Positions 865 through 28,101 of a stretch of 28,101 nucleotides of DNA are shown here, piece after piece. Position numbers and translations under genes: made by a program. The stretch comes from an uncultured bacterium. Lineage in GTDB: Bacteria > Zixibacteria > MSB-5A5 > JAABVY01 > JAHJOQ01. The stretch lies in assembly GCA_965369655.1 (NCBI GenBank), contig CBDUQR010000036.1:1-28101 (forward strand). The letters are read 5' to 3'. The notes beneath the pieces are model-generated. The model was not told where the DNA came from and searched no databases. It was given only the letters and a program-made list of their open reading frames with translations. Within the stretch, counting starts at the first letter, position 1. Each line of letters begins with the position of its first letter.

Positions 865-876
865 TTTAGCACCTCG

Positions 877-2148: not shown

Positions 2149-2150
2149 GG

Positions 2151-3380: not shown

Positions 3381-3388
3381 ATCGAAGC

Positions 3389-4480: not shown

Positions 4481-4524
4481 GCGTTTCTCCAGCTTAATCT
4501 GTTTCAGTCCGTCTGCTCTGACTA

Positions 4525-4550
4525 TACGGTATCCCGGATAGTGTGTTTCA
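4525..4550 (-). promoter_or_regulatory. Putative ECF sigma (SigW-like) promoter TGAAAC-N16-CGTA
   Basis: Minus strand reads TGAAAC acactatccgggatac CGTA, lying between the upstream terminator and the adaptor gene start. Confidence 0.6.
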
Positions 4551-4567
4551 AAAGATAGTGCAAACAC

Positions 4568-4597
4568 AAAAAAGCGCCGGCGAAAAAACACCGGCGC
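4568..4597 (-). terminator. Intrinsic terminator downstream of the SPFH gene
   Basis: Minus strand GCGCCGGTG-TTTTTT-CGCCGGCGC (9-bp stem with one G-U pair) followed by TTTTTT. Confidence 0.85.
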
Positions 4598-4640
4598 CAA
4601 TAGGGCTTTCAGAAAATCCGATTCCGAGCACATGTATGCA

Positions 4641-4704
4641 CACAGTGGCTGTGCCGCTGTGTTCTTAGCTAACTGCACAGAATCTGCAGGGGCACAGCCC
4701 CTGC
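4641..4704. repeat. Inverted pair of short palindromic elements (REP/REPIN-like)
   Basis: GCAGGGGC-ACA-GCCCCTGC on + (4686-4704) and CACAGCGGC-ACA-GCCACTGTG on - (4641-4661); the cores match at 15 of 17 positions. Confidence 0.5.
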
Positions 4705-12978: not shown

Positions 12979-13028
12979 ATTATCGAGCCTCCATGCAGGG
13001 TATCATCGGATCCGATTTGTTTGTCGAG

Positions 13029-13057
13029 AAGTTACAGGTGTTTATAGACTAAGGCAA
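13029..13057 (-). promoter_or_regulatory. Sigma70-type promoter for ppdK
   Basis: TTGCCT-N17-TAACTT on the minus strand; the same -10 hexamer occurs in the promoter at 24335-24363. Confidence 0.55.
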
Positions 13058-13167
13058 GCATTTTTTGGGTATACTACACCCCTCCGGTTCCGGGTAAGGT
13101 TCCGAGCAAAAGAATTCGATCAGGAAGAAGTTGCAAACTGGGCGCCTTCTTACACAGCCACAACACG

Positions 13168-13482
13168 CTACATCGTGAAGTAGCGTTTTCCCGATACGAT
13201 CTTTTCCAGCATTTTGAGAGTCTTCTCGACCGGCGCATGCATCAGGTCACGTGTGTTGTACGTGCCCTTGATATCATCCCGGATGTACTCGACTCCGTTC
13301 GCACCCTTAGGCCGCTGCTTCTTCTTGTGCGTGAGGTTGTAAAGCCTCTGGTACTCCTTGGCCTTCTCTTTGTGCGCCAGGTAGTACCGTCTCTGATACT
13401 CCCTCCTGGCTTCCCTGGCCTCTTCAGGAGTCATGGCTTTTTCTTTGCAGCGCTTGGGCTTAGAGATTTGAATCTTCCCCAT
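13168..13482 (-). CDS. Small basic hypothetical protein with a tandem 14-aa repeat
   Basis: 104 aa, K/R-rich; REYQRRYYLAHKEK / KEYQRLYNLTHKKK; purine-rich RBS region (AAGGACAGGTGGC-ATG) and its own promoter. Confidence 0.8.
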   Translation of the reverse strand: MGKIQISKPKRCKEKAMTPEEAREARREYQRRYYLAHKEKAKEYQRLYNLTHKKKQRPKGANGVEYIRDDIKGTYNTRDLMHAPVEKTLKMLEKIVSGKRYFTM

Positions 13483-13583
13483 GCCACCTGTCCTTGGTTT
13501 GGCTCTGACGAATCAAGTGCTAACCGCAATTACCTCAGAAAATTACGATGTATTAATGCCTGGACTAACTCCATTGCTTAACT

Positions 13584-13612
13584 AATGTAACATTAAAGAG
13601 TTACCTTGTCAA
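13584..13612 (-). promoter_or_regulatory. Strong sigma70 promoter with an overlapping palindromic operator candidate
   Basis: TTGACA-N17-TACATT with an extended TG; the palindrome TAATGT-A-ACATTA at 13583-13595 covers the -10. Confidence 0.75.
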
Positions 13613-13746
13613 CAGAATTCTGCAATGCAGTTCATCTTTTTTGCAAGAAAACGGCGGGACCGAACTAACTGTCATGCAGTATATTATGGGTGAAACACCC
13701 GGCCCTTCACCGCACAGCCGGCCCTATCCCTCTATCATTTCATACG

Positions 13747-14388
13747 CTAACTCACATAATCTGACAGCATGTTCACCCACTCCTGCAACGATGCTATCCG
13801 CTGAACAAACAGTGAAATACGAGCCATGACCGTATAGCCAAAACTGGCGCCGAATCCTATCATCAGGATATAGATACCAACCTTGGCAAAGCCTCCAAAT
13901 GCACCCTTGTGCTCTTTGGAGAAAAAGAAATAAATCAACGCTGCTAATACGCCCAGCACTATGATGATGTTCCAGAATTCAGTTCCGGAGCCGACGCCAA
14001 GCGTCAGGTCTAGAGTCGATGTCAGTTGTCTGTTCACGTTGTTATACATATACAGTGGTAAGGCAACGCCCGAGCCGATCCCGATATAGCATGCAATCGG
14101 GTAACGCGACACCCACGCTAATTTCTTTGAGAATCTGAACCACATTGACAGACCCAGCAAGCCTGGAATGATATATGCGTAGTTGCCGTCGAATATCCTG
14201 TTGAAGAGTGTCGGGATCAGGCTGGTGTGAATCAGCAGGACAAAGAAATACCCAGCCGACACGCCAACCACCAGATGCTCTGCAAACTTATAAAACGGAT
14301 TGTCCTTATACAGAAACGAGAAGGTCGCAAGCGTAAGGATCGCACCGAGCGTTGTCCAGAGCAATTCAATAAATGGAGTATCCTGCAT
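13747..14388 (-). CDS. Module 3 subunit D: 6-TM 'LYKDNP' membrane protein
   Basis: SFLYKDNPFYKFAEH, YFFFSKEHKG and FGASFGYTVMAR are shared with D1/D2; GGAGG RBS. Confidence 0.88.
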   Translation of the reverse strand: MQDTPFIELLWTTLGAILTLATFSFLYKDNPFYKFAEHLVVGVSAGYFFVLLIHTSLIPTLFNRIFDGNYAYIIPGLLGLSMWFRFSKKLAWVSRYPIACYIGIGSGVALPLYMYNNVNRQLTSTLDLTLGVGSGTEFWNIIIVLGVLAALIYFFFSKEHKGAFGGFAKVGIYILMIGFGASFGYTVMARISLFVQRIASLQEWVNMLSDYVS

Positions 14389-14401
14389 CTGTCACAACCT
14401 C

Positions 14402-15253
14402 CTACAAGTCCGTTTGCGTTTTTCTGCGGCTCAGGTAGTAGCCGATGTTTCCGATCAATATGAACAGGATGATAGTCAGATGCGCCGCCACCTGTGCCGG
14501 CATACCGGCTGTAGCATCGTGCTCCTCACCCACCAGCTTTTCATATTCCGCAGCGCCTTTCCATCCTCCTATAAGACCGAATATGGCGTTGCCGAGATAC
14601 GGGTAGAAGTCAGAAGCCATAACGCCCGTGACACCGAGCGCCAGAGGCATGTCGTATTTGGCGTTGCCATAGACTATCCACCAGTCACCTGTTGTGCCTG
14701 ATGTGAGCACGAGTACGCATTTGACATCGTCGTAGTTTCTGACTCGATCCATTATTGGTAATGAGTCCAACGGATTGTTGTAATAATCCTCCGGGAAGTA
14801 GATCCTGAAATTCTGCCCCATGCCGAGAATAACGAGCGCCGGATATGGTCGATAGCCGAGGAAGCAATAATCCTCGCCATATTTCTTCTCGATGCCATAC
14901 AGTTCCCTCGATTCCTCCACACCATTCCTGAGAAGCTCTTCAACCATAGTCGAACCATACTGCGACAGCGTCACTCCCAGGACCTTGACATCGGTTCTGA
15001 AAGCATGCAGCAGGATTGCGCGCGCCATCGGGTGCAACTCTGCGAGCGAATTCGGATCGTAGTCGAAACTGATGAGGATCTTATCTCCCGGATCGAGATC
15101 CTCAATAAACTGATAGATCGACTCGACCTCGCTGGTGACCGTTACCGGGACACTGAAATCATTCCTGAAGAGATAAGCGAATGTCACCACGACAGCCAGG
15201 AAAAGGTAGACCCAGCGGCGATCGAGCATCGTCATTTTCTCGAATACATTCAT
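14402..15253 (-). CDS. Module 3 subunit C: membrane-anchored 'FDYDP' protein
   Basis: Start moved to ATG 15253 (GGAGG RBS); DRRW + TM, SFDYDP, GGWKGAAEYE, Q-x-x-AH + TM; paralogous to C1/C2. Confidence 0.88.
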   Translation of the reverse strand: MNVFEKMTMLDRRWVYLFLAVVVTFAYLFRNDFSVPVTVTSEVESIYQFIEDLDPGDKILISFDYDPNSLAELHPMARAILLHAFRTDVKVLGVTLSQYGSTMVEELLRNGVEESRELYGIEKKYGEDYCFLGYRPYPALVILGMGQNFRIYFPEDYYNNPLDSLPIMDRVRNYDDVKCVLVLTSGTTGDWWIVYGNAKYDMPLALGVTGVMASDFYPYLGNAIFGLIGGWKGAAEYEKLVGEEHDATAGMPAQVAAHLTIILFILIGNIGYYLSRRKTQTDL

Positions 15254-15263
15254 TGTCGCCTCC

Positions 15264-15887
15264 TCAGTCTTTCCCGAGGTACGAGCGCTCAATGCCGAGC
15301 AGTACCTTCAGTGATGTTGCAACTATGCCAAGCCCGATGCCGATAATGATAGCGCGCTTTGCAGCGAGATTCGGAACTTTCAGTACCCAACTCGCAAGGT
15401 CGGATATCGGCTCAGACAGCGGTCCCATCGGCATGAACCTTACCATGATAATAAAAGCAGCCAGGAGCAGCACTGATGCGAGAAGCGATCGCGCCCTGAA
15501 CGCTCTGAATGCCGCCGAAGCGATAAAGAACGCCAGCAAAGCAAACATCGTCGCCTGAATCGGCACCATTATGTATGAAAAGAAATGTATGTACCAGTAG
15601 TTTGTCAGAAATCCGCCATCCGGAAAAAACCCGACTATCATCATGAAGAACAGGCCTGCAATAGTAATTACAGCGTATTGCCAGTTCTCGGATTTTCGCT
15701 TGATCTTATCGACATTGACACGAAGGAGCGACCATAGTCCGAGTATAAGCGCGAATATCCCGATAATGATAGTCCAGTCGAGCGCATACTCGTAGATCAT
15801 ATCCGAAGTGTCGTTCGGAACGAAATACTGGAATACCATGAAAAGTCCCAAAATAAATACTAACTTCAGAGGAAGCCATTGTTTCAT
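15264..15887 (-). CDS. Module 3 subunit B: 6-TM membrane protein
   Basis: MFALLAFFIASAAFRAFRAR, PNLAAKRAIIIGI, LGIERSYLG; GGAGG RBS. Confidence 0.88.
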   Translation of the reverse strand: MKQWLPLKLVFILGLFMVFQYFVPNDTSDMIYEYALDWTIIIGIFALILGLWSLLRVNVDKIKRKSENWQYAVITIAGLFFMMIVGFFPDGGFLTNYWYIHFFSYIMVPIQATMFALLAFFIASAAFRAFRARSLLASVLLLAAFIIMVRFMPMGPLSEPISDLASWVLKVPNLAAKRAIIIGIGLGIVATSLKVLLGIERSYLGKD

Positions 15888-15901
15888 CTGTACATCCTCC
15901 T

Positions 15902-17131
15902 TTACAGCTTAACCCTGAGCATTTCGATCAATACATCCCAGCCCAGAACCGAAGTGATGGCTCCGATCACAAGCAGAACCATGACTATCGCCTTCGCCCA
16001 GTCCTCAGCCTTCAGAGAACCGAGCAAGACCGGCTCTTTGCCGAGATAGGCGGATGCAGCGTACAATTCCTCACCGATCAGAGTGTAATCGCATGCAACC
16101 ACAAAGAATGGAATCTGCGCGACCTGATCGGTCCCGGAAATCTGGATGGCGCCTGTGGACGCTCCAGTCTCCGCGAGAATCAGAGATTCGGCATGGAAGA
16201 CGCCGAGATAGAAATTCGTCGCAGGCTGTTCCCGCACCATGATGCCGTTGACACCGGCGACGTACGCGAACTGCGAATTGGTAATGAAAAAGACCATGTC
16301 TTCGTCATAGTGGTCGGGCTTGCCCGCTTCCATATAGGCGGCCTTAACCACCTCCTGCGCGACCGTCATCACGATAGCCTCGTAACATGGCACAATAAGT
16401 TTGGTCTGATACTCAGCGACCTTCTTCGCTACCCTGCTGAGAATGGTAAACGAAGCTATCGTCGCAATATCGGATGCGGCGCCGAGCCCAAGCACATAAA
16501 GAATCGGCTTGCCCATCTCGGTCGCTCTTCCGATCGCCTCGTCGACCGCCTGAATACCAGCGATCGGGCGAACGTAAAGATCCTTGCCCCTCTTCGCCGC
16601 CACAATGAAATAGATAGTGAAGGCAGTGAAAAGCAGAACCGCTACAAGGACCGGAATCTTGCCGAGATGGAGCCACTGGGCTTTAGCCCGATACGGACCC
16701 GCAATATCAGACATCGTAGTGAGTCCTTCTGTCCCAACGGCGACTACTTTGTAGAAGAAGTCTGTATTGTTCGGGAAGTAATCAAGCTCGTCCTCATCTC
16801 GATTACCGCGATCCGAATACTCGAAGACATCGTTCGGCAGTTTACCACGAAGCACGTACTCACCATCGGGATATTCGGCACGGTAGACCTCAAAACCTGA
16901 AATCGCGCTGACGTCGCCATCCGGCACCTCGAATTTCAATCCAAGCGCATGGCCGTTGTCGTTCGGCAGGTCTTTCCCGGACAGGACTACCGGTTTCGGT
17001 GGTGGATCAACCAGCACCTCCTCGAGCAGCGTGTCGGCAGCGATTTCTTCAATCTGAGCGAAGACAGGCGAAGAAAGCGCGAAGAGCACAGCAACCGCCA
17101 GATACATTATCAGTTTCAGCCTGTGTTTCAT
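15902..17131 (-). CDS. Module 3 subunit A: signal peptide + FN3-like domain + DUF6754-like domain
   Basis: IAGIQAVDEAIGRATEMG, AESLILAETG, PFFVVACDYTLIGEELYAASAYL; N-terminal DLPNDNG...GFEVYR...YKVVA beta-sandwich. ATG 17131 preferred over GTG 17137. Confidence 0.88.
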   Translation of the reverse strand: MKHRLKLIMYLAVAVLFALSSPVFAQIEEIAADTLLEEVLVDPPPKPVVLSGKDLPNDNGHALGLKFEVPDGDVSAISGFEVYRAEYPDGEYVLRGKLPNDVFEYSDRGNRDEDELDYFPNNTDFFYKVVAVGTEGLTTMSDIAGPYRAKAQWLHLGKIPVLVAVLLFTAFTIYFIVAAKRGKDLYVRPIAGIQAVDEAIGRATEMGKPILYVLGLGAASDIATIASFTILSRVAKKVAEYQTKLIVPCYEAIVMTVAQEVVKAAYMEAGKPDHYDEDMVFFITNSQFAYVAGVNGIMVREQPATNFYLGVFHAESLILAETGASTGAIQISGTDQVAQIPFFVVACDYTLIGEELYAASAYLGKEPVLLGSLKAEDWAKAIVMVLLVIGAITSVLGWDVLIEMLRVKL

Positions 17132-17161
17132 AGACACCTTCTTTATGAGAAGTACTATTTA

Positions 17162-17905
17162 TTATCTAATCATTCCGAGCCAGTCGCCGAACAGGAACTG
17201 CATCCTTCCGACCAGCAGCGATATCCTCGCCATCACCGTGTATCCAAACGAAGCTCCGAACGTGATCATGAGTACAGTTATCCCGGTTCGCGCACCTGCG
17301 CCGAAGGCACCTTTGTGCTCTTTCGAGAAGAAGAAATAGATCAGGCCACAGATGACGCCACCAAAAACGATCACATTGGAAAGTGTCGCGCCCAGGTCGA
17401 AACCGGATGCATTGTTTACATATAACGAAAACACAGTGTTGTTGATTTGCTGAATGAAATCGGAACGCAGGTATCTGACCAGGTTCAGTCCCGCCGTCGT
17501 TCCGACGATAAACGCAAGCGCCCATCTCGAAATCCATCCTGCTTTAGAAGAGAGCCGCATCAATAAGAGAATCCCGAGCACGAGCGGTATCACCATGTGA
17601 AGCTGGACAGGATCATCTTTCAGAGCCGGAAGGACAGGTCCGACCACAGGAGGATAAAGTTTGCCGAACAGATTCGGCACCATAGTCCCCCAGAATCCCA
17701 TGCACATCCAGTACGCGGCGCTCACTCCCACGAACAGATGCTCTGCGAACTTGTAGTACGGATTGTCCTTGTAGAGAAACGAGAAGATGAACAGCGTGAG
17801 AAACGCGCCAATTGTGACAAGAAAACCCTTGAGTGCGACGCTTATTACGAACGCGATCACAATTACCGCAAGGACTATGTAGCTCGCCATTTTCCTGGCG
17901 TTCAT
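17162..17905 (-). CDS. Module 2 subunit D: 'LYKDNP' membrane protein with an extra N-terminal TM
   Basis: SFLYKDNPYYKFAEH, YFFFSKEHKG, FGASFGYTVMAR; the start overlaps the C2 stop (TAATG). Confidence 0.88.
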   Translation of the reverse strand: MNARKMASYIVLAVIVIAFVISVALKGFLVTIGAFLTLFIFSFLYKDNPYYKFAEHLFVGVSAAYWMCMGFWGTMVPNLFGKLYPPVVGPVLPALKDDPVQLHMVIPLVLGILLLMRLSSKAGWISRWALAFIVGTTAGLNLVRYLRSDFIQQINNTVFSLYVNNASGFDLGATLSNVIVFGGVICGLIYFFFSKEHKGAFGAGARTGITVLMITFGASFGYTVMARISLLVGRMQFLFGDWLGMIR

Positions 17906-18801
17906 TATTCTGCTCCTGTCGCCCGCGCCCTGTCGCGACTTCTCTGAATGAAGTAAAGCACGTTCCCAAACAGTATGAAGAACATTATCACAACGTGAGC
18001 AACCGCCTGCGACATCATCAGGCTCATGCCGGCCATCTTGCGGTCTTTGTATTTCGGATATGCCTGAATTAACGCATTCTCATACTCGGCTGCGCCTTTG
18101 GCTCCTCCAAGAATACCGATGAGCTGATTCGGATAGTATGGATAGAGAAGCGGCGCCGAGACAGCGGTACATCCACCGCCGATAGGAATCTTACCCGGAT
18201 CACCGGCATAGAGAACCCACTCTTTGATTCCGGGGAATCCGCCACCGAACGATATTATCAGATCGAAATTCTTCAGATTCCTGATATTCTTCATCATCGG
18301 GAAATCATCGATAGCCGTGTTATTCGCGTCAGTCGAATACATCATCTTGAAGTCAACCAGGATAACCCGTATTAACCCCTGGTTACCGGCTTTATAGCCG
18401 AGATTGATATAGTCTATTCCGTATTCATACTCCGGGAATTCCGGCTTCAGGATCTTCTCGATAGTCTCCCAGGTGAGATTGTGCCCTGTCGCCCAGACAG
18501 CCATCATGTACATCTTGCACTTCCGCTCACCGCATTGCCGCACGATAGCGTCGACCATAGGCTGAATCTCGGGCGCGGTCGTGGGACCGTAATCGAACGA
18601 CAACAATACTCTGGAGCCTTCCGGCAACTCATCCACAGTGTCGAAGAATGCCTGCACGATCGGCGTTGTCTCCTCTTTGAGCGTTGCCCCGAACAGCAGA
18701 GGTATGACAACCGCGAGCCCGATGAACACGAAGATGATCCGACGGTCTATCGATTGCAACCGTTCGACAAGTGATTTCTGTTCAGTGTGACCGTTGCTCA
18801 T
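17905..18801 (-). CDS. Module 2 subunit C: membrane-anchored 'FDYxP' protein
   Basis: DRRII + TM, SFDYGP, YGIDYINLGY, GGAKGAAEYE, SQAVAH + TM. Confidence 0.88.
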   Translation of the reverse strand: MSNGHTEQKSLVERLQSIDRRIIFVFIGLAVVIPLLFGATLKEETTPIVQAFFDTVDELPEGSRVLLSFDYGPTTAPEIQPMVDAIVRQCGERKCKMYMMAVWATGHNLTWETIEKILKPEFPEYEYGIDYINLGYKAGNQGLIRVILVDFKMMYSTDANNTAIDDFPMMKNIRNLKNFDLIISFGGGFPGIKEWVLYAGDPGKIPIGGGCTAVSAPLLYPYYPNQLIGILGGAKGAAEYENALIQAYPKYKDRKMAGMSLMMSQAVAHVVIMFFILFGNVLYFIQRSRDRARATGAE

Positions 18802-18811
18802 ATTGTAATCC

Positions 18812-19495
18812 TCAGTCGTTGTCCTGACCGAGATATGTCCTTTCGATTCCGAGAATAATCCTCAGCGACATCGAGATCACTCCGAGAGCTATGCCGATCA
18901 TGATAGCGCGCTGACCGGCGAGATTCGGCACATCCATGATCCAGTTGGCAAGGTTCGGAATTTGCAGGAATTCCCAGCCTCCCGTTAAGCCGCCAGTCAG
19001 CCAGAGTCCGAACGGTGTTCGCCCGAGCAGGATCACAAATGCCGCGATAAGCAGGATAGTGGCCTCAACTGTTTTCGCCCTGAACGCCCTGTATGACGCC
19101 GATCCGACATAGAAAGCCAGCAGAGCAAACATCGACGCCTGCAACGGAGTGAAGATATACATGTACAGATCATTGAAAAGCGAGCCAATCGCTGCGACGT
19201 CGCCCTGGATACCGCCGGGATTGCTGATCTTGAACAGCCCGGCCGCGAGGACCAAACCGAAACTCGCGAGAGTCACAGCCGAGAATGGCCAGTCAGCCTT
19301 TTTCTTGTTGATCTTGGTGATATGCACTCTTAGGAGATTGCCGCCGCCGAGAATGAAAGCAAATACGGCGATGATATCGAAATACATCGAGAAATTGTCG
19401 CCAAGGCTGCCGAACGGCTTATGCGGTACAAACTCGGCGACAATCAGCACAGTGCCGACAATCAGTGTTATTACAAGCGGTACAGTTCTACGCAT
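18812..19495 (-). CDS. Module 2 subunit B: 6-TM membrane protein
   Basis: MFALLAFYVGSASYRAFRAK, PNLAGQRAIMIGI, LGIERTYLG. Confidence 0.88.
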   Translation of the reverse strand: MRRTVPLVITLIVGTVLIVAEFVPHKPFGSLGDNFSMYFDIIAVFAFILGGGNLLRVHITKINKKKADWPFSAVTLASFGLVLAAGLFKISNPGGIQGDVAAIGSLFNDLYMYIFTPLQASMFALLAFYVGSASYRAFRAKTVEATILLIAAFVILLGRTPFGLWLTGGLTGGWEFLQIPNLANWIMDVPNLAGQRAIMIGIALGVISMSLRIILGIERTYLGQDND

Positions 19496-19498
19496 AGT

Positions 19499-20749
19499 TT
19501 AGCTCGCTGAGAACCATCCCTTAATCGTGTTTGCCAGCGACAGTACGGATTCGGATTCCGTGATCGCGGCAACGGTAAACAGTACACAGAGCAACACAAT
19601 TGCGCTCATCGCGATGATCTTGCCGACATCCTGACCCTTCAGCGATCCAAGCTGCTTCGGCTCCCCGGACAGGTATGCCGACGCTGCGAAAAGCTCTTCG
19701 CCGATCAGGGTATAGTCGCATGCTGCCACGAAGAACGGCAACTGCGCAGGCATGGCGGTACCTGCGATCTGAATCGCGCCGATCGAGTGACCCGTTTCAG
19801 CGAAGATCAGAGATTCGGCAAAGAACGCACCGATGTAGAAACAGGTCGCCGGTTTTTCGCGAACCATGATGCCGTCGACCGCGGCTACGTATCCAAACTG
19901 CTCGTCGGTCACGTAGTGCACCATGTCGTCCGAATATGCATCGGGGCGACCGGCAGCTATATACGCTTGTCTGATAGTCTCGCGCGCCGTAGTCAGTACG
20001 ATTGAACGAGAAACCGGCATATTGATCTTGGTGTCGTACTCGGCAATTGTCCTGGCGACACGCCCAAGAATGGTTATCCCCGCAATGGTCTGAACGTCGT
20101 CCACATCGAGAATACCGGGAATGAACAGAATCGGACGGCCCATCTCGGTCGCGCGTCCGATGGCCTCGTCGACAGCCTCGAGTCCGGCAATCTTCCGCAG
20201 GTAGAGCTTCTTCCCCTTCTGCGCACTGAAGATGAAAAATAAGACCGAAAAACAGATGATAAAGCCGATTACGAACGTATCGAGGTCTTTCGTATTGAAC
20301 CACTGTGCCGATGACACAACTCCACCGGAAATATCGGATTTCGAGCCGCCCGCATCTGATGTCGTCAGGACGTAGTAATAGTACGTCACGCCGTCGGTGG
20401 TGGTAGCGTCCTCATACTCTGTCATCCCGCGGGAGGCTGTCCCGACCATTTCAAATTCATCGTCATCGGAAGCCATTCGGTAGATATTGTAGCCGGTGAC
20501 ATTGTCGTCGCCAGCGCCGTCATCAAGCGACAATGCCCATCCGATCGTGACCGATCCGCCAGCATCGCCTTCGGAGTCGCGTACCAGCGTAAGATGCGCC
20601 GGTCTCGGAAGATCTATCTGCTCCATGATCATGCCGGTCGTATCCTGCATGACAGTATCGGGCTCGACCTGCGCGGCAAGCCATGAGAACGGGACCGCCA
20701 GAAGCAGCACCAGTCCAAACGCAGCAACTCGACTGAAGCGATTTTTCAT
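19499..20749 (-). CDS. Module 2 subunit A: signal peptide + FN3-like domain + DUF6754-like domain
   Basis: Start placed at ATG 20749, just past the D1 stop; IAGLEAVDEAIGRATEMG, PFFVAACDYTLIGEE; FN3-like W...YNIYR...YYYYV pattern. Confidence 0.88.
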   Translation of the reverse strand: MKNRFSRVAAFGLVLLLAVPFSWLAAQVEPDTVMQDTTGMIMEQIDLPRPAHLTLVRDSEGDAGGSVTIGWALSLDDGAGDDNVTGYNIYRMASDDDEFEMVGTASRGMTEYEDATTTDGVTYYYYVLTTSDAGGSKSDISGGVVSSAQWFNTKDLDTFVIGFIICFSVLFFIFSAQKGKKLYLRKIAGLEAVDEAIGRATEMGRPILFIPGILDVDDVQTIAGITILGRVARTIAEYDTKINMPVSRSIVLTTARETIRQAYIAAGRPDAYSDDMVHYVTDEQFGYVAAVDGIMVREKPATCFYIGAFFAESLIFAETGHSIGAIQIAGTAMPAQLPFFVAACDYTLIGEELFAASAYLSGEPKQLGSLKGQDVGKIIAMSAIVLLCVLFTVAAITESESVLSLANTIKGWFSAS

Positions 20750-20753
20750 ATCT

Positions 20754-21443
20754 CTAACCAAATGTCCCGATTATCCAGTCATTGACGAGAAAATCGATTC
20801 TTCCAATCAGGAGCGACATTCGGCTCATGACGGTATACCCGAATGATGCACCGAAAGTTATCATCAGGAACCATGTCCCGACTTTCGCGGCGCCACCGAA
20901 GAAGCCCTTGTGTTCCTTGGAGAAGAAGAAATATATCAGACCGGTAAACGTCCCGATTAGAATAATGGCATTGCCCACCCCTTCACCCCACCCCTGAACA
21001 GGTGGAATGCCACCGGCGTCCGATATAGGGCCGAACAATGGTACTATCGTATTGTAAACTTGTTTGACGCCATTGGAGACAAGATAATTGATAAACTGGA
21101 GACCGGCAGTTGCGCCAACTACCAACGCCAGCGGCCATCTCGAGATCCATCCTATTTGAGGAATGAGCCGCAGGAGCATCATGATGCCGAGTACGGCAGC
21201 GATGACATATAGCAACTCGTAAGTGATCTCGAACCGGGTGAAAAGCGCAACGAGCGCTGGCCAGAGATTCGCCCAGAGTTTGGAATATAGATTCTGCCAG
21301 AAGAGCGAAGCAATCCAGTAACCTGCCGAGATTCCGATAAAAATCGCCTCGCAGATCTTGTACCAGGGATTGTCCTTGTAGAGAAATGAAACTATCCCCA
21401 GTGTCAGAAACGCTCCGATCCAAATCCCGACATCGAAATTCAT
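20754..21443 (-). CDS. Module 1 subunit D: 6-TM 'LYKDNP' membrane protein
   Basis: SFLYKDNPWYK, YFFFSKEHKG, FGASFGYTVMSR. Confidence 0.88.
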   Translation of the reverse strand: MNFDVGIWIGAFLTLGIVSFLYKDNPWYKICEAIFIGISAGYWIASLFWQNLYSKLWANLWPALVALFTRFEITYELLYVIAAVLGIMMLLRLIPQIGWISRWPLALVVGATAGLQFINYLVSNGVKQVYNTIVPLFGPISDAGGIPPVQGWGEGVGNAIILIGTFTGLIYFFFSKEHKGFFGGAAKVGTWFLMITFGASFGYTVMSRMSLLIGRIDFLVNDWIIGTFG

Positions 21444-21450
21444 CTTATCG

Positions 21451-22290
21451 TCACTCCTTGCCTTTGCGCGTCACAGCGTAAGCGATGTTGCCTACTAGTA
21501 CAAAGAATATGACGATTGCATGCGCAAAAGTCTGTGAGAGCATATATTTCGTCGCTTTGTCCTTGAAACCCGTGAGCTTCTCGAACTCTGCGCCGCCTCT
21601 CATTCCGCCGAGCAGACCGATCAACTGCCCCGCATTGAGGTAGGGATACACCAGCGGCGCCTGAACGGCGGTATTGCCGGCCACAAGCCTCACGCCAAAT
21701 CTGTCGGCGGCGACCTGCACCCACTCAACGGTACCGGGATAGCCTGCCGAGAAATTGAAGACGAAATCTACATTCGAGAAGTTCTTCACATTCTTCAGAA
21801 GCTCGACGTCGTGATACGGATTTCCGCGAACATCCTTTGGAAAAGCCTCTGAGAAATCAGTACCCATTCTCTGGATCACGAACTCATTACCGGCCTGGAA
21901 GCCGAGATTCACGTAGTTTATCCCATACTGGAGATTCTTCGCGGCGATCTCCGGGACTTCAAGAGCCTTCTGGATCGAAATCTCAGCCTGAAGCGGTCCC
22001 TGTGGCCACAATCCTATGAATATTAGTTTCAGATCTTTCTGGAAAGCATACTTGACAGCAGCATCGGCCATTGGCTGCAATTCAGGCGCTGATGGTGGAT
22101 CGTAGTCGAATGCCATCAGGACTTTCGAGCCGGGTGGAAGTTCATCAAACGCATCGAATAATACTTGAACTTCATCCGAAATGGAGAGCTTAAAACTCAC
22201 GGTAAGGAACATGGGTATCAGAAGAGACAAGCCGACGAAAAGGAAAATCCATCTTCTGTCAACGGCGAGCATTTTTTCCCAGAATCCCAC
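21451..22290 (-). CDS. Module 1 subunit C: membrane-anchored 'FDYDP' protein
   Basis: DRRW + TM, AFDYDP, YGINYVNLGF, GGMRGGAEFE, SQTFAH + TM; the GTG start overlaps the B1 stop (TAGTG). Confidence 0.88.
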   Translation of the reverse strand: MGFWEKMLAVDRRWIFLFVGLSLLIPMFLTVSFKLSISDEVQVLFDAFDELPPGSKVLMAFDYDPPSAPELQPMADAAVKYAFQKDLKLIFIGLWPQGPLQAEISIQKALEVPEIAAKNLQYGINYVNLGFQAGNEFVIQRMGTDFSEAFPKDVRGNPYHDVELLKNVKNFSNVDFVFNFSAGYPGTVEWVQVAADRFGVRLVAGNTAVQAPLVYPYLNAGQLIGLLGGMRGGAEFEKLTGFKDKATKYMLSQTFAHAIVIFFVLVGNIAYAVTRKGKE

Positions 22291-22943
22291 TATTCGCTCC
22301 CTCCGAGATACGATCTCTCGATACCGAGCATAATTCGCAGGGCGGTCGATACCGTTCCGAGCGCGATTCCTATCATGATCGCGCGCTGACCGGCAAGGTT
22401 CGGGTAGTTCATGATAAACGACGCAATATCAGACAGTGGCGTGAAATCCTGCACGAACGGACCGAAGAGAATGTCGTCGAAGAGCACCCGTCCCATCATC
22501 ACGAGAAAGCCGGCCACCAGCAGGAGAGTCGCCTGCAGATTCCTCGCACGGAACGCTCTGTATGATGCCGACGCGACAAAAAAAGCGAGGAGGGCAAACA
22601 TCGTGGCTGATAACGGAGTGTAGATGAAGTTATAGAGCCAGGTGAACTCTGTGTCGGGAGTCTGGAATTCGGGACCTCCCGCAAATCCCGCGATTGCCAT
22701 CGTGAGCCATGAGACCACAATGATCAAAGCATACGGCCAGTCTTTCTTCTTCCTCTGTATCTTGATGATCGACAGCTTCAGAAGGTTGAGCGCACCGAGC
22801 CAGATCGCACACGCGGCGATTATGAAAAACCAGTCCGAGAACAACTGCTCAAACTTGTCGAATGGCGAGTGCGGAATGAAATACTGAATGACGAAGGCCA
22901 TGCCTACGACCCCAGTAATCACCAATGGTATTTCACGTTTCAT
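22290..22943 (-). CDS. Module 1 subunit B: 6-TM membrane protein
   Basis: MFALLAFFVASASYRAFRAR, PNLAGQRAIMIGI, LGIERSYLG. Confidence 0.88.
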   Translation of the reverse strand: MKREIPLVITGVVGMAFVIQYFIPHSPFDKFEQLFSDWFFIIAACAIWLGALNLLKLSIIKIQRKKKDWPYALIIVVSWLTMAIAGFAGGPEFQTPDTEFTWLYNFIYTPLSATMFALLAFFVASASYRAFRARNLQATLLLVAGFLVMMGRVLFDDILFGPFVQDFTPLSDIASFIMNYPNLAGQRAIMIGIALGTVSTALRIMLGIERSYLGGSE

Positions 22944-22946
22944 TAT

Positions 22947-24194
22947 CTAGTCCACCGGAACGCTGAATAAACTGGCGAAATCATATACGCCAAGTGTCTG
23001 GATGATCACACCGATCAGTATCACAAGCAGAATCAGACCTTTGCCCAGATCCTGTCCCTTTAGAGAGCCGAGGAGTTTCGGTTCCTTCGACAAGTAGGCT
23101 GAAGCCGCATAGAGTTCTTCGCCAATCAGCGTGTAGTCACATGCCGCGACGAAAAACGGAAGCTGCGCAGGCATCGCCGTACCTGCTATCTGAATCGCAC
23201 CTATTGAGTTTCCGGTCTCGGCGAGAATGAGCGATTCAGCGTAGAACGCACCCATATAGAATATCGTAGCAGGTTTCTCCCTGACCACCATCCCATCGAT
23301 GGCAGCGGCATATCCGAACTGATCGTCAGTCAGGTAGTGAACAATGTCTTCATGGAATGCGTCGGGGCGACCGGCGTTGACATACGCCTCCTTGACGATC
23401 TCACGCGCGATGACCATAACCAGCGATCGTGACACGGGAACATCGAGCCTGGTCTCATACTCGGCGGCGAGTTTCGCTACTCTGCCGAGGATTGTCACGC
23501 CTGCAATTGTCTGAATGTTCTCGATATCCTGCGTGCCAGGAACATAGAATATCTTCTTACCCATCTCCGTTGCACGACCGACAGCCTCATCGACAGCTTC
23601 GAGACCCGCAATCTTGCGTATGAACAGCTCTTTGCCGGCTTTCGCCTGATTGATGTAGTAGAGGATCAGGAAACTAATAACGAGGGCAAAGACCAGTACA
23701 ACAGTGCGGCTCGTATTGAACCACTGAGCCGATGAACTTACTGCGCGAGTATAGCCTGAGAAGGCAGTTACAGGGATCAATTCACTTGAAGCTGTTGCAA
23801 GTTCATTGACGGCAGCAATCCTGTAGACATAGCTGACGCCACTAACTGCATAGTTGTCTCTGGCGGATGTTCCACCCGCCGGTGCAGAGCCGATTACTTC
23901 GAATTCACTGTCGGAAGCATCAGATCGCTTACGTTCGACATCATATCGAACAACCATCCCTTTGGCGTCATCCGGCGAGAGTTCCCAGCCGACATGAATA
24001 GAACCACCATTATCGTTTGGCGTATCTTTGGCGGTTATATTGACCGGTGGGGCTGGCCTAACGGCATCTTCTGGAACAGCAGAGACGGCAACTGCGGCAC
24101 TGTCAGCCAGGTCCTCGTCTACAACAGTCGCACACAATATCAGCGGCGACAAAACAACTGCGATGCAAATAGCGAGCAATGTTCTAAGTAGCAT
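22947..24194 (-). CDS. Module 1 subunit A: signal peptide + FN3-like domain + DUF6754-like domain
   Basis: ATG 24194 preferred (the TTG at 24206 lies in a U-tract); PAPPVNITAKDTPNDNGGSIHVGW...YVYRIAAVN FN3-like domain, TM, IAGLEAVDEAVGRATEMG, PFFVAACDYTLIGEELYAASAYL. Confidence 0.88.
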   Translation of the reverse strand: MLLRTLLAICIAVVLSPLILCATVVDEDLADSAAVAVSAVPEDAVRPAPPVNITAKDTPNDNGGSIHVGWELSPDDAKGMVVRYDVERKRSDASDSEFEVIGSAPAGGTSARDNYAVSGVSYVYRIAAVNELATASSELIPVTAFSGYTRAVSSSAQWFNTSRTVVLVFALVISFLILYYINQAKAGKELFIRKIAGLEAVDEAVGRATEMGKKIFYVPGTQDIENIQTIAGVTILGRVAKLAAEYETRLDVPVSRSLVMVIAREIVKEAYVNAGRPDAFHEDIVHYLTDDQFGYAAAIDGMVVREKPATIFYMGAFYAESLILAETGNSIGAIQIAGTAMPAQLPFFVAACDYTLIGEELYAASAYLSKEPKLLGSLKGQDLGKGLILLVILIGVIIQTLGVYDFASLFSVPVD

Positions 24195-24204
24195 GGAACC
24201 TGCC

Positions 24205-24236
24205 AAAAAACGAGACCGCCGGATAAGCGACGGCCT
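24205..24236 (-). terminator. Intrinsic terminator-like hairpin immediately upstream of the module 1 start codon (possible attenuator)
   Basis: Minus strand AGGCCGTCG-CTTATC-CGGCGGTCT (9 bp, two G-U pairs) followed by CGTTTTTT. Confidence 0.7.
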
Positions 24237-24334
24237 GTATGCAATTTATATCAACGAAAAAGCGATGTTCGATTTACAACAAATTGTTTCACTTCAACGC
24301 TTTCGATGCTAACAACCATTCCAAAACTTGGGTC

Positions 24335-24363
24335 AAGTTATGCCGGGCGACTGTTCAAGTCAA
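24335..24363 (-). promoter_or_regulatory. Sigma70-type promoter for the 12-gene module array
   Basis: TTGACT-N17-TAACTT on the minus strand just after the stop of 24378..25505. Confidence 0.6.
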
Positions 24364-24377
24364 GAAAAAACCCGGCT

Positions 24378-25505
24378 CTACCCCTCTATCAACTCCACGT
24401 TCGCCCGCGGAATAACTGCTTTCGAACCGTCACCGAATTCGACTTCGAGGATTCGAGCGTATGATTCCGAATCGAGTTTCTTCAGTTCAGGCGGAAGATC
24501 TGATACCTTGCCCAGCCTTCCGAAATATGGCTGCCGAATAACTCTGACCGGAGATCCTACACCGAGCCCCATCGAGTTCTGCGACTTCAACGACTCACCG
24601 GATTGATCCGACTTGCCGAGAGGTATGACAACCTCGGGGCGGATAACGCCGGCTCTGATCTGTGTCGCGCCGTTTATACACGCCATCTCGCCTTCTTTTG
24701 ATTTCAAGAGATCGAACGTCCTCTGCGCAATGTCGATCTGACCGAATCCCTCCGTTATGACAACTGTGACGCCCATGTCTTCATTGCCGGTGATTGCGAC
24801 GCCGATGTCGGTCCCGAGAATCTCCCGAAGATCCTTGTCGTCTATGCCTCCGACCACAATTCCCTTCGCCTTCACCTCGATTGCCCTGGTGATCGCGGCT
24901 GATGTCACAAGCGATCCGCCAACAATAACCTTGCCCTCGCACGATGAATCTATCAAGCTGTCGGTGAGAATATCAGAGTTGCTTTCTGTGACAATCTTTA
25001 TTTCGCCGTGAGTTTCTCCACCTATTCCGAAAATCCCCTGCACGAAACTGCCTTCGGTCTCGACGACCACGCCCTCCTCCGGGATCACCTCGGTGACCGT
25101 GCCGTCGAGATACGCTTTTACTTCCACTGGAATGGGATGACCGCGAAGTAAAACCTGTCCGGTGACATTCGAAATGTTCTCGATTGTGCCGTCGATCTTC
25201 GATTTCGCCTCGGACTTGAACAGGCCGAAGAAGCTCTTGGTCATGGCAATCGGTTCGTCCTTCGCGATTGGATCGCCTTCTTTCTTGAGCATGCACTCAT
25301 CGACATCTTCGGGAGGAACGCCGAGGATATTCGCGATATTTATCGGTTCGACATTGCCCGGCAAGTCAGTTCGAGCGACGACCACATCCGGTTCGACCTT
25401 ATCACCGGTCTTGACTACCACCTCACCCTTGAGTGGAAGAATGCGTCTTTTGGAAACAGTCATCCTCTCGGTGACTTTCAAACCGGGCGTATATGCGTGA
25501 GCCAT
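24378..25505 (-). CDS. Uncharacterised soluble protein: barrel-sandwich-hybrid repeats, central alpha/beta domain, C-terminal KOW-like domain
   Basis: GEVVVKTGDKV, KKEGDPIAKDEPIA, KSKIDGTIENI, VKAYLDGTVTEV; AITRAIEVKAKGIVVGG; GVGSPVRVIRQPYFGRLGKV; AGGAG RBS. Confidence 0.85.
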   Translation of the reverse strand: MAHAYTPGLKVTERMTVSKRRILPLKGEVVVKTGDKVEPDVVVARTDLPGNVEPINIANILGVPPEDVDECMLKKEGDPIAKDEPIAMTKSFFGLFKSEAKSKIDGTIENISNVTGQVLLRGHPIPVEVKAYLDGTVTEVIPEEGVVVETEGSFVQGIFGIGGETHGEIKIVTESNSDILTDSLIDSSCEGKVIVGGSLVTSAAITRAIEVKAKGIVVGGIDDKDLREILGTDIGVAITGNEDMGVTVVITEGFGQIDIAQRTFDLLKSKEGEMACINGATQIRAGVIRPEVVIPLGKSDQSGESLKSQNSMGLGVGSPVRVIRQPYFGRLGKVSDLPPELKKLDSESYARILEVEFGDGSKAVIPRANVELIEG

Positions 25506-25607
25506 ATTCTCAACTCCTGTCTACGTAAGACGAAACATGATCAATATCATCAAATGCACCGAGTATATATATCCACGTTCATCTGGAGCGGATCAGTCCC
25601 CGCAGAT

Positions 25608-27464
25608 TTAATCCCTGTCCAGCGCCTCCGCATGGTATACATCAAGCTCGGTGATCCACTCTTTCAATTTCTGTATCCTGAGACTGTCTTCGTCTGGAGG
25701 CGTAAACGGCCTGCCGCGTCCATCGAGAATTATCCCGACGACACCGCCGGAAACAGTTGTCTCGAGTTTATGCCCTTTGCCCGCGCCGACATCCTGGTGG
25801 CGATCCGGTTCGAGAACGGCCTTTGCTTTGAGCGGTATACCGGTCTCTTCATCGAACCCGAGCTTGATCAGCTTCATCGTGCCGGACATCAACTCGCCCT
25901 CAGCCGTCTTACCGCCGGGCAGTTCAAATTTGTATTTCATCAGAGCCTTATTGCCCTTGAAACTTCCGCACGGCGCCACGCATGTGCCCAGATGTATCAG
26001 GCAATCCTTTTCGAATACTTCGGTCGCGGCGTTTTTGTGGACGACCGACAGCACGCCGAGTTGAGGCATCATGAATATCGAGTCGACCGCGAGCCTCGTG
26101 ATACCCTCCGGCTGGAACGCGTCGATCGCCATCAGCGCCGCCTGCTGACGGCGCGGAGCATGCGACAGAACGCCGCCGGAGCCGATCAGCATATTCAGCG
26201 ACATCATATTGACGAGTGTCTGTCCCGACGATACCTGCGCGAATGCATCAGCGATCGTCCTTTGCTGCTGTATACCCTTGAGCACCGTCGCGAATTCCTT
26301 GTGCTGTATGAATGCGAGCCGCAACGCTTCTCTGGCGACTGCCTGCTCGAATATCAACTCTTCCATCGTCTGCGGGATAGTGGTCGGGCGGATCATCTTG
26401 TTCTTGATCCTGTTGCGCAGGTCGCGCTCGTCCATGTGGAACGGCACCCAGCGCATGACATTCGGAAGCCCCGTCTCCTTGAATACGTTTGAGACCGAAT
26501 AACTCATCCCGAGATTCGCGGAGACCGTGCGGTTAAACACATCCTGAAATACGGAGAATACGTCAGTCGTCGCGCCGCCGATGTCGACGCCTAACGCCTC
26601 GATACCTTCGATATCCGAGATCGTTTTGATGATCGCACCTACGGCTCCCGGAGTCGGCATGATATCAGCATCGGTCCAACTCATCAGCTTGCTGTAGCCG
26701 GGAGCCTGCGCCATGACATGCTCCATGAACAGGTCATGGATTTTCTCGCGGGCGGGAAGCAGGTTCTCTCTTTCGAGCACCGGCCTGAGATTGTCAACTA
26801 TTCCAAGATCTACCTTGTCGCCAAGTGTTGCGGTGATATTCTCACGAGCTTCCTTGTTGCCTGCGTAAATCACCGGAAGCTTGTAACTGGAACCGAGTCT
26901 CGGTTTCGGGTCGGCTGCGCTGATAAGCTCTGCGATCTCCACAACATGCGTTATCGTGCCACCATCGATTCCGCCGGAGAGAAGAATCATGTCCGGGCGG
27001 AGGTGACGGATTCTCTGGATTTGTTCGTGTGGAAGTCTCTTGTCATTCGATGCGATTACATCCATCACGATCGCGCCCGCACCGAGAGCCGCGCGCTCAG
27101 CCGATTCGGCGGTCATCGATCGGACCACACCCGCGACCATCATCTGCAAACCACCGCCAGCCGATGATGTCGAGATATAGATGTCAGTTCCGACCTTGTT
27201 GCCGTTGTCATCAGATCGGGGCGAGATAATTTTGTCGTTCTCATCGAGGAGCTTGCGGCCGGAAAGTTCGACTACCTCCTGGACGGCGTTCAGCACGCCC
27301 ATAGTGACATCTTCGAACGGCGCCTCGACAGTTGTCGGCGCCTCGCCCCTGACGATCAGCCGATATTCACCATCGCGGTATTCTATCAGAATCGCCTTGG
27401 TGGTTGTGGAGCCGCAATCGGTCGCGAGGATAACCTTGATATCTTCAGGCTTCATGTCTCTCAT
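25608..27464 (-). CDS. GlmL/MutL-like (glutamate mutase L family) ASKHA ATPase, long form
   Basis: Phosphate-1 ATDCGSTTTKA, SSAGGGLQM, AALGAGA, LSGGIDGG, MPTPGAV, phosphate-2 VDIGGATTDVFS, adenosine-motif-like IGSGGVLSHAP. Confidence 0.88.
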   Translation of the reverse strand: MRDMKPEDIKVILATDCGSTTTKAILIEYRDGEYRLIVRGEAPTTVEAPFEDVTMGVLNAVQEVVELSGRKLLDENDKIISPRSDDNGNKVGTDIYISTSSAGGGLQMMVAGVVRSMTAESAERAALGAGAIVMDVIASNDKRLPHEQIQRIRHLRPDMILLSGGIDGGTITHVVEIAELISAADPKPRLGSSYKLPVIYAGNKEARENITATLGDKVDLGIVDNLRPVLERENLLPAREKIHDLFMEHVMAQAPGYSKLMSWTDADIMPTPGAVGAIIKTISDIEGIEALGVDIGGATTDVFSVFQDVFNRTVSANLGMSYSVSNVFKETGLPNVMRWVPFHMDERDLRNRIKNKMIRPTTIPQTMEELIFEQAVAREALRLAFIQHKEFATVLKGIQQQRTIADAFAQVSSGQTLVNMMSLNMLIGSGGVLSHAPRRQQAALMAIDAFQPEGITRLAVDSIFMMPQLGVLSVVHKNAATEVFEKDCLIHLGTCVAPCGSFKGNKALMKYKFELPGGKTAEGELMSGTMKLIKLGFDEETGIPLKAKAVLEPDRHQDVGAGKGHKLETTVSGGVVGIILDGRGRPFTPPDEDSLRIQKLKEWITELDVYHAEALDRD

Positions 27465-27576
27465 TTAGAATTCCTTCTATCTCAAACAGAACATATTCGA
27501 GTCTCAAACGACAGGACATACTCCCGCCCTGCCGCGAAGTCCCAAATAACATAAATCACTCCCCGTTTGTCAAGCT

Positions 27577-27605
27577 GTCTGAGGGGGATGTGGTCTGAGG
27601 GGATG
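27577..27605. repeat. Short direct repeat GTCTGAGGGG(G)ATG x2
   Basis: Copies at 27577-27590 and 27593-27605, between a minus-strand TTGACA (27568-27573) and the stop of the upstream gene. Confidence 0.7.
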
Positions 27606-27615
27606 AGTGAAAAGG

Positions 27616-28101
27616 TCAGAGTGAAGGGCGATCCATTTCGGACGTAATCATAGGGGACTCTTCTGAGAAGTCACATTGAATCCATCCATGATAGGGGGCT
27701 GACTCCCCTTTCTCCAGTGCGGGTAAAGTCAAATTGTCAATAGCATCAAGCAAATCCTGAGAGATTTTCGTTTCAGCCGAATCAGAAGACTGTAATTTGT
27801 TATCGTGGCTGCAAAAGTTTGTACTGTATACAGAAATACCTAGATCCTTCAACTCACCAACCACGTAGTCAATCGGAATATCCCAACGACAGCCAGTCGA
27901 AATCACCCCAGCGCATTCATCCTTCTTAAATTTCCTATAAAGCTGCTTACAGAAACTATTCTTGGATCCATGGTGGCTTACTTTGAACAAATCTATGCCT
28001 GCTTTGAGCTTCGATTGTGATAGAATGGTCTTCTGGCTAGGTACGTCTGAGAGGTGGTCCCAGTTGGTTGGACAGTTTGGCGACAGTGTTAAGGTGAATT
28101 T
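27616..28101 (-). CDS. 3' part of an MBL-fold hydrolase (ComEC/Rec2-like); the 5' end lies outside the window
   Basis: The frame stays open to base 28101 (translated by hand); contains IDLFKVSHHGSKNS, GVISTG and VYSTN, typical of the ComEC-type MBL C-terminus. Confidence 0.7.
   Translation of the reverse strand, partial: KFTLTLSPNCPTNWDHLSDVPSQKTILSQSKLKAGIDLFKVSHHGSKNSFCKQLYRKFKKDECAGVISTGCRWDIPIDYVVGELKDLGISVYSTNFCSHDNKLQSSDSAETKISQDLLDAIDNLTLPALEKGESAPYHGWIQCDFSEESPMITSEMDRPSL

Follow-up and report, generated by a model that had tools for sequence, protein, structure and literature searches.

The actin-fold ATPases of the ASKHA (acetate and sugar kinases/Hsc70/actin) superfamily include several helpers of coenzyme-B12 enzymes. 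GlmL, of the MutL/GlmL family, is encoded together with the glutamate mutase subunits GlmS and GlmE, and the ASKHA ATPases DdrAB/GdrAB and EutA re-set B12 enzymes. Here we describe a locus from an uncultured bacterium of the Zixibacteria lineage (assembly GCA_965369655.1, contig CBDUQR010000036.1, hereafter C36) that codes for a long form of the MutL/GlmL-type ATPase, a soluble partner protein of 375 amino acids (aa), which we term P375, and three successive copies of a four-gene module, A-B-C-D, whose products are membrane proteins. The window, i.e. the entire stretch of 28,101 nucleotides (nt) that was analysed, is this contig, and it belongs to an assembly of 2.99 Mb rated 99.5% complete. 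In at least two phyla, as well as in a variety of metagenome lineages, the ATPase-P375 unit is tied to ABCD modules by gene linkage and co-occurrence. We propose, at a probability of about one half, that the ATPase and P375 constitute a single ATP-driven unit common to the five ABCD modules that we found in this genome.

Gene organization of the locus

The genes of the locus and the hairpin discussed below are as follows, in the order of transcription; identities are to the first copy of each gene.

25608-27464, minus strand: ATPase, long-form MutL/GlmL family of the ASKHA superfamily, 618 aa; PF13941, E-value 1.4e-126
24378-25505, minus strand: P375, soluble partner protein, 375 aa; AlphaFold2 (AF2) model and Foldseek domain matches, no Pfam family
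24213-24236, minus strand: terminator-like hairpin with a T6 tail in the P375/A1 spacer; pattern match only
22947-24206, minus strand: A1, DUF6754; PF20539, E-value 3.2e-126
22290-22943, minus strand: B1, a 217-aa membrane protein, about six transmembrane (TM) helices; hydropathy and lysine plus arginine (K+R) bias
21451-22290, minus strand: C1, 279 aa, bounded by TM helices at both ends; hydropathy and K+R bias
20754-21443, minus strand: D1, polytopic membrane protein of 229 aa; hydropathy and K+R bias
19499-20761, minus strand: A2, paralogue of A1, 55% identity; PF20539, E-value 2.2e-123
18812-19495, minus strand: B2, 48% identity
17905-18801, minus strand: C2, 39% identity
17162-17905, minus strand: D2, 50% identity
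15902-17137, minus strand: A3, paralogue of A1 and A2, 44% identity to A1; PF20539, E-value 9.1e-119
15264-15887, minus strand: B3, 43% identity
14402-15292, minus strand: C3, 34% identity
13747-14388, minus strand: D3, 41% identity

All 14 open reading frames (ORFs) between positions 13747 and 27464 thus lie on the minus strand, with the genes for the ATPase and P375 followed by the three modules in unchanged internal order, exactly as a prior sequence-only reading of the window had described them. The protein sizes vary little over the three copies (A 411-420, B 207-227, C 279-298 and D 213-247 aa). That reading had also portrayed the genes as overlapping or nearly abutting, which holds for the twelve-gene array, where the intergenic gaps range from -29 to +24 nt, but fails for the two soluble genes, which are set off by spacers of 102 nt (ATPase/P375) and 171 nt (P375/A1). 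The widest overlap arises from the listed TTG start of C3, which reaches 29 nt into B3, so that an internal ATG start is possible for this gene. For A1, an ATG at 24194 is a more likely start than the listed TTG at 24206, and the hairpin at 24213-24236 sits just before this likely ATG. With a 9-bp stem containing 6 G-C pairs and its T6 tail it surpasses every other terminator-like hairpin in the region; taken together, the scan recovered 11 hairpins against a shuffle mean of 12.7, i.e. no excess.

The MutL/GlmL-type ATPase

The ATPase aligns with the entire Pfam MutL profile (PF13941; profile positions 1-450 of 450 over residues 12-488) at 423.3 bits, against a gathering cut-off of 27, which secures the assignment to the MutL/GlmL family that had been made from the sequence alone, and it continues past the MutL domain in a C-terminal extension of about 130 aa. 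Its best NCBIfam matches are GlmL (NF040745, 230.4 bits versus a cut-off of 475) and Or-4 (NF040744, 212.7 versus 600); both lie under their cut-offs, as does the match to TIGR01319 (169.9 versus 204.05). The phosphate-1, phosphate-2 and adenosine motifs typical of ASKHA proteins, namely D16-G18-S-T-T-x-K23, G296-G-A-T-T300 and G430-G431-x-L-S-H435, are invariant across 20 aligned homologues that are 41-88% identical to the protein of the window, and for this reason the ATPase looks active. It also ranks among the most conserved proteins of the locus. A sequence search with it against the PDB recovered nothing meaningful.

The earlier observation that neither a mutase nor a B12-binding motif is present at the locus can be extended to the whole genome in the case of glutamate mutase E (Met_asp_mut_E, PF06368), which has no match in the assembly. 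Two B12-binding domains are encoded in the genome, on contigs C16 and C19, and a genome-wide profile search placed no B12-binding domain near either of the two MutL genes, which are found on C36 and C15.

The partner protein P375 and its fusions

No Pfam family matches P375 even at E<=10. Its AF2 model, with a predicted local distance difference test score (pLDDT) of 91.6, opens with beta barrels of the barrel-sandwich-hybrid type, continues with an alpha/beta domain in the middle and ends in a KOW/SH3-like barrel. Foldseek searches with this model recovered single-domain matches, none of which extends over the whole protein: the C-terminus matches KOW/Spt5/PetP-type domains with target-normalized TM-scores (TMt) of 0.6-0.84, and the remainder matches swiveling-type alpha/beta domains and, weakly, NqrA and the glycerol dehydratase reactivase (1nbw_C; probability 0.60, query-normalized TM-score (TMq) 0.20). 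Relatives of P375 additionally show sub-threshold matches to RnfC_N, NQRA_N, Biotin_lipoyl and KOW. The P375 family is large, with 2586 clusters at 50% identity (E<=1e-3), and includes fused forms of 995 and 1003 aa.

Two proteins exemplify the fusion of the ATPase with P375. One is the product of the second MutL gene of this genome (C15, 47300-50074; locus L007), a protein of 924 aa which is 43% identical to the ATPase of the window and 28% identical to P375, and shows a sub-threshold match to EutA (16.2 bits versus 27); the P375-like nature of its C-terminal third marks it as a natural fusion. The other is the 995-aa protein P0144. These two fusions, together with constant gene adjacency, show that the ATPase and P375 form one unit.

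Anatomy of the ABCD membrane module

The A proteins are clear members of DUF6754 (PF20539; cut-off 27 bits), with scores of 420-422 bits for A1, 411 for A2 and 396 for A3 and E-values of 1e-119 to 1e-127. The AF2 model of A1 (pLDDT 91.0) shows a signal-peptide-like N-terminal helix (residues 2-24), a fibronectin type III (FnIII) sandwich (55-158), a TM helix (165-189), a six-stranded alpha/beta domain (200-373) and a second TM helix (376-405). Titin-type matches to the FnIII region were obtained both with Foldseek and in a PDB profile search. According to the K+R bias over 102 homologues, the alpha/beta domain (residues 187-388) is cytoplasmic and the FnIII domain lies outside; many invariant acidic and polar residues occupy the strand ends of the cytoplasmic domain. 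FnIII domains dominate the Foldseek results for the A1 model, where the sole other lead is the C-terminal domain of Nir2 (TMq 0.20), and a look-up of the cytoplasmic domain in the Atlas returned no usable match and no named look-alike.

Hydropathy and K+R bias indicate about six TM helices for B and place both of its termini inside; the only Pfam match of B1 is a sub-threshold one to TMD0_ABC (22.2 bits versus a cut-off of 27). In C a TM helix at each end brackets a domain of about 220 aa, which is probably periplasmic because the tails of both helices are basic and, by the K+R bias, cytoplasmic; its second TM helix carries conserved residues Q253, H257 and N268. The best 120 of 3560 homologues of C are all named 'hypothetical' and are devoid of Pfam domains, and a Pfam scan of 79 members of the C family gave single stray matches only. 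D is a polytopic membrane protein, and the module as a whole has about 16 TM helices. Neither Pfam, above threshold, nor the PDB offers a family or structure that B, C or D would match; profile searches of the latter recovered FnIII only for A, one chance-level match for B (E 0.49) and none for C or D. A remote duplication origin for B and D, or for A and C, was considered and rejected (hhalign probabilities of 2.0% and 2.4%).

Further copies of the module and their age

Pairwise BLASTP comparisons of the three copies in the window gave identities of 43-55% for A, 39-48% for B, 28-39% for C and 41-50% for D, at E-values (1e-32 to 1e-142) far beyond chance. The complex had been described as triplicated, which is correct for the window and understates the genome, where we found five DUF6754 genes, five B-C-D sets and two ATPase genes. 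The fourth module is complete and lies on contig C6; the fifth is split, with a short A gene that lacks the ectodomain on C1 and B-C-D on C15. Conservation differs markedly between the parts of the five paralogues: the cytoplasmic domain of A retains 51-74% identity and its ectodomain 22-37%, with C at 30-41%, B at 38-49% and D at 39-51%.

Judged by sequence divergence, the three modules are old, retained paralogues, as the copies are only 28-55% identical. To place them, a FastTree phylogeny was computed from the C-terminal 300 residues of 92 A proteins, taken from 34 hand-picked loci of 80 fetched ones and from the five copies of this genome. A1 grouped with 32 first-position copies (support 94), A2 with 20 second-position copies (support 98) and A3 with 17 third-position and 9 second-position copies (support 97). 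Such clades of same-position copies imply that the triplication predates the sampled Zixibacteria.

In other lineages two small genes, whose products have about 123 aa and about 151 aa (the latter a membrane protein), are found close upstream of the ATPase gene. In the present genome the two genes overlap each other on contig C1 (13427-14429), where the ORF listed for the membrane protein has 173 aa and that for the soluble protein 164 aa. Relatives of this membrane protein and this soluble protein were detected in 22 and 9 loci of the other lineages, mostly upstream of the ATPase gene and often overlapping its start, and in a few cases downstream of P375. The pair probably encodes further parts of the system.

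Conserved gene-neighborhoods and co-occurrence across genomes

PF20539 is present in all 151 sampled Zixibacteria genomes, mostly in five copies, and in none of 14 control genomes. PF13941 was likewise detected in 61/61 sampled genomes of this phylum. A second whole MutL copy occurs in the present genome only, and 59 of the other 60 have one whole copy; the irregular cases are G045, in which the copy is split over two contigs, and G020, which has an extra stray match under the cut-off. The system is therefore core to the phylum Zixibacteria. Eighty loci of the Zixibacteria type were fetched with A1, and 55 of these have at least 4 kb of sequence upstream of the first A gene. The ATPase and/or P375 gene lies beside the array in 25 of the 55, being co-oriented with it in 6 and divergent in 19.

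A second phylum, that of locus L085 and titled Eiseniibacteriota, has both PF20539 and PF13941 in the same 37 of 41 genomes and neither family in the same four (G180, G181, G188 and G192). A co-oriented DUF6754 gene follows within 6 kb downstream of the MutL domain in 30 of the 37, typically at about 2.0 kb, a distance that leaves room for P375. These counts include the unpublished genome G170; when it is set aside they become 36/40 for each family and 29/36 for adjacency.

A further set of 80 metagenome loci was retrieved by means of aligned remote relatives of P375; these loci are 34-49% identical to the first row of the alignment, and a P375 ORF was recognized in 79 of them. Of the 55 loci with at least 2.2 kb of upstream sequence, 41 have an ATPase ORF as the immediate upstream neighbor of P375. 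ABCD genes were found beside P375 in 23/79 loci (17 downstream, 4 upstream, 1 inverted and 1 on both sides); among the long-flank loci they are present in 12/23. The sequence-only reading had held that its proposal would fall if the GlmL-like gene proved to be unlinked to ABCD elsewhere and tracked with mutases; the linkage is kept in other genomes. Its picture of an ATPase, a partner and ABCD genes that belong together stands in this respect, and requires revision in others: there are five modules to one or two ATPase units, two further small proteins are encoded in other lineages, and the pair is often located away from the array.

Beyond the divergent pair, at loci in the range L009-L087, genes resembling tolQ, tolR, tolA, tolB, pal and ybgF were recognized by eye, in 12-17 loci per family. 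They may hint at a link with the cell envelope or may reflect plain synteny.

A proposed shared ATP-driven unit and its alternatives

The established facts of the genes, their paralogy, their domain anatomy, their linkage and their co-occurrence are those set out above; from here on we infer that unit and modules make physical contact, that ATP is coupled to their action, that one unit serves several modules, and what kind of work is performed. The idea of a shared device arises from the presence of one ATPase gene per about five modules and from the cytoplasmic domain of A being the best-kept part of the module. Under this proposal the ATPase-P375 unit would act on the common cytoplasmic face offered by the A domain and thereby drive a conformational cycle, the divergent outer parts, i.e. 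the C domain and the FnIII domain, would give each module its own target, and the outcome would be translocation across the cell envelope or work upon it. That the machine is a true transporter or translocase, a possibility already contained in the figure of about one half given above, we regard as distinctly short of an even chance. We likewise put forward only as a tentative suggestion that it represents a new class of ATP-driven membrane machine, in which an ASKHA motor with a barrel/KOW adaptor, rather than a P-loop NTPase, docks in turn on the ABCD modules via A. A predicted-binding run with the cytoplasmic domain of A (residues 190-385) and P375 returned 'no answer' at a score of 0.00, which speaks neither for nor against such docking.

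Several observations weigh against a shared unit. In 30/55 Zixibacteria-type loci the 10-kb flank of the array does not contain the pair, and 11/23 long-flank metagenome loci are devoid of ABCD genes. P375 lacks an immediately preceding ATPase ORF in 14/55 metagenome loci, although at one of these (L108) such an ORF is found about 1.5 kb farther away on the upstream side. The hairpin between P375 and A1, and the divergent orientation of the pair in 19 of the 25 linked loci, make it probable that the pair and the array are transcribed separately. At several metagenome loci (L095, L098, L100, L125 and others) a P375 homologue with neither ATPase nor ABCD genes nearby is followed by genes for a response regulator and a membrane histidine-kinase-like protein (8 loci each); P375 relatives can hence work in other settings. 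The four Eiseniibacteriota-titled genomes that lack both families may form one clade or be incomplete, and the co-occurrence counts, which are descriptive only, exaggerate the support because related genomes do not count as independent cases. Finally, no fold or motif points to a substrate.

Some of these same observations would be expected if the pair and ABCD were separate systems, neighbors merely by descent, with the modules working by themselves, for instance as ion-coupled carriers or envelope proteins. The spacers of 102 and 171 nt and the hairpin before A1 fit such a situation, as do the loci at which one partner is found without the other, and four of the five modules of this genome have no adjoining ATPase gene; moreover, the conserved Q253, H257 and N268 in the second TM helix of C would suit a self-sufficient path for an ion or substrate. 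What speaks against it is that the linkage survives rearrangement (both orientations of the pair occur, and ABCD may come before, after or inverted) at loci where P375 is only 34-49% identical to the query, and that presence and absence match in the second phylum, where 30/37 genomes show adjacency. We hold mere neighborhood to be improbable. Somewhat less improbable, yet still unlikely in our judgment, is a relation of client and chaperone, in which ABCD would be a membrane enzyme or cofactor complex and the ATPase-P375 unit a maintenance factor that loads, exchanges or re-sets something on the Rossmann-like domain of A. By analogy this has several attractions: the only named relatives of the ATPase, GlmL and Or-4, are enzyme accessory proteins; the genes of reactivase-type factors adjoin those of their clients; the central domain of P375 gives weak matches to swiveling-type domains and 1nbw_C; the A domain, six-stranded and with invariant acidic and polar residues at its strand ends, is built as cofactor- or nucleotide-binding domains are; and one ATPase gene per about five modules would suit a catalytic helper. 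However, the structural matches are weak and confined to single domains, A matches no cofactor family in Pfam and has no named look-alike in the Atlas, and a B12 link of A was rejected, its profile being unrelated to the two B12-binding proteins of the genome (hhalign probabilities of 0.1% and 0.7%).

It is exceedingly improbable that the ATPase is an ordinary GlmL, that is, an accessory protein or reactivase of a coenzyme-B12 mutase encoded elsewhere that has come to lie beside membrane genes by accident. The full-length MutL match, the ranking of GlmL and Or-4 as best NCBIfam matches and the existence of two B12-binding domains in the genome would be in keeping with this, but the scores fall under all three NCBIfam cut-offs (230 versus 475, 213 versus 600 and 170 versus 204 bits), Met_asp_mut_E is missing from a genome rated 99.5% complete, the B12-binding domains and the MutL genes are on different contigs, and neither the 130-aa extension nor the fixed partner is known from GlmL. 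The ATPase-P375 unit is not a helper of a B12 mutase, and the label to that effect on the long-form ATPase is a mislabel.

Five of the six protein families of the system are without known function, and the sixth has been carrying that label. Were the proposal of a shared ATP-driven unit to be true, ATP would be coupled to membrane work in a manner unlike that of ABC, P-type, F/V-type and AAA+ systems, and the label of the long-form branch of the ATPase family would need correcting. The five-module layout also amounts to a natural experiment, in that the same motor would meet different outer domains.

Other genes of the window

Further genes of the window are listed below. Those at 136-4678 on the minus strand make up an ordinary export system of the MacB type, which is separate from the 14 genes.

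136-864, minus strand: ABC ATPase of the MacB-type system
877-2148 and 2151-3380, minus strand: MacB_PCD/FtsX permeases
3389-4678, minus strand: HlyD-family adaptor
4718-5545, minus strand: SPFH/Band 7 protein
5678-7813, minus strand: ADP-forming acyl-CoA synthetase-type protein, 711 aa, with CoA_binding, Succ_CoA_lig and ATP-grasp_5 domains
7958-9859, minus strand: protein of 633 aa; its only match, to PMT_2 (GT-C glycosyltransferase), is sub-threshold
10063-12978, minus strand: pyruvate phosphate dikinase, 971 aa, longer than usual
13168-13482, minus strand: flanking ORF, 104 aa, no Pfam family
27616-28101, minus strand: flanking ORF, at least 161 aa, no Pfam family

The PPDK_N matches of the pyruvate phosphate dikinase fall in three separate stretches, which suggests insertions. 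The ORF at 27616-28101 was considered as a counterpart of the small soluble companion of other lineages and rejected, as it gave no BLAST match to the neighbor set. At the metagenome locus L114 the gene immediately preceding that of P375, which here has no ATPase gene beside it, codes for a membrane protein of 1062 aa that we take to be a glycosyltransferase of the GT-C/DUF2723 type.

Comparison with known systems

The sequence-only reading had placed the system outside the ABC, TRAP, ECF and Rnf classes, and this is upheld, in that none of the six proteins matches a Pfam or NCBIfam family of these classes above threshold. ABC_tran (PF00005) is not detected in any of the six, in which the sub-threshold TMD0_ABC match of B is the only ABC-related signal; neither EcfT/S nor DctQ/M/P is matched in Pfam or NCBIfam; and B, C, D and P375 have no Rnf/Nqr match in Pfam even at E<=10. 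None of the defence families in the PADLOC-DB models was recovered for the six proteins and no Rfam family in the region 13000-28101, and the literature searched yielded no paper about DUF6754, PF13941 or such GlmL-like ATPases, and none that deals with B, C, D or P375.

The ATPase shares with GlmL/MutL and Or-4 the ASKHA fold, the full PF13941 match and the nucleotide motifs. It differs from them in scoring under every NCBIfam cut-off and in its length of 618 aa with the C-terminal extension of about 130 aa; it further differs from GlmL/MutL in that this genome encodes no mutase E subunit, and in that the long form is always paired with or fused to P375 and linked to ABCD genes. The reactivases DdrAB/GdrAB and EutA are comparable in combining an actin-fold ATPase with an extra swiveling-type alpha/beta domain and in being encoded beside the client, here a presumed one; yet the matches to 1nbw_C and EutA are weak, no B12 enzyme is encoded at the locus, and the presumed client is a membrane module of 16 TM helices.

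Rnf and the Na+-NQR are reminiscent of the present system in that a soluble subunit begins with a barrel-sandwich-hybrid domain, a likeness reflected in the sub-threshold RnfC_N and NQRA_N matches of P375 relatives and the weak Foldseek match to NqrA, and in that two six-TM subunits of about 210-230 aa are accompanied by a membrane-anchored subunit with an outer domain. However, no subunit described here matches an Rnf/Nqr Pfam family, and an ATPase takes the place of the redox input module. Moreover, RnfA/E and NqrD/E are homologous pairs, whereas B and D are unrelated (hhalign probability 2%). The group II ECF transporters, in which one energizing module is common to many S components, offer a functional analogy only: here too about five exchangeable membrane units face a single cytoplasmic ATPase unit per genome, but the ATPase is an actin-fold enzyme, with no P-loop ABC ATPase, EcfT or S-component being present, and each membrane unit consists of four proteins. 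The one described family to which part of the membrane module clearly belongs is DUF6754, through A1, A2 and A3; this family has been without a function, and to it the present analysis adds a fold, a membrane topology, the B, C and D companions and the link to a MutL/GlmL-type ATPase.

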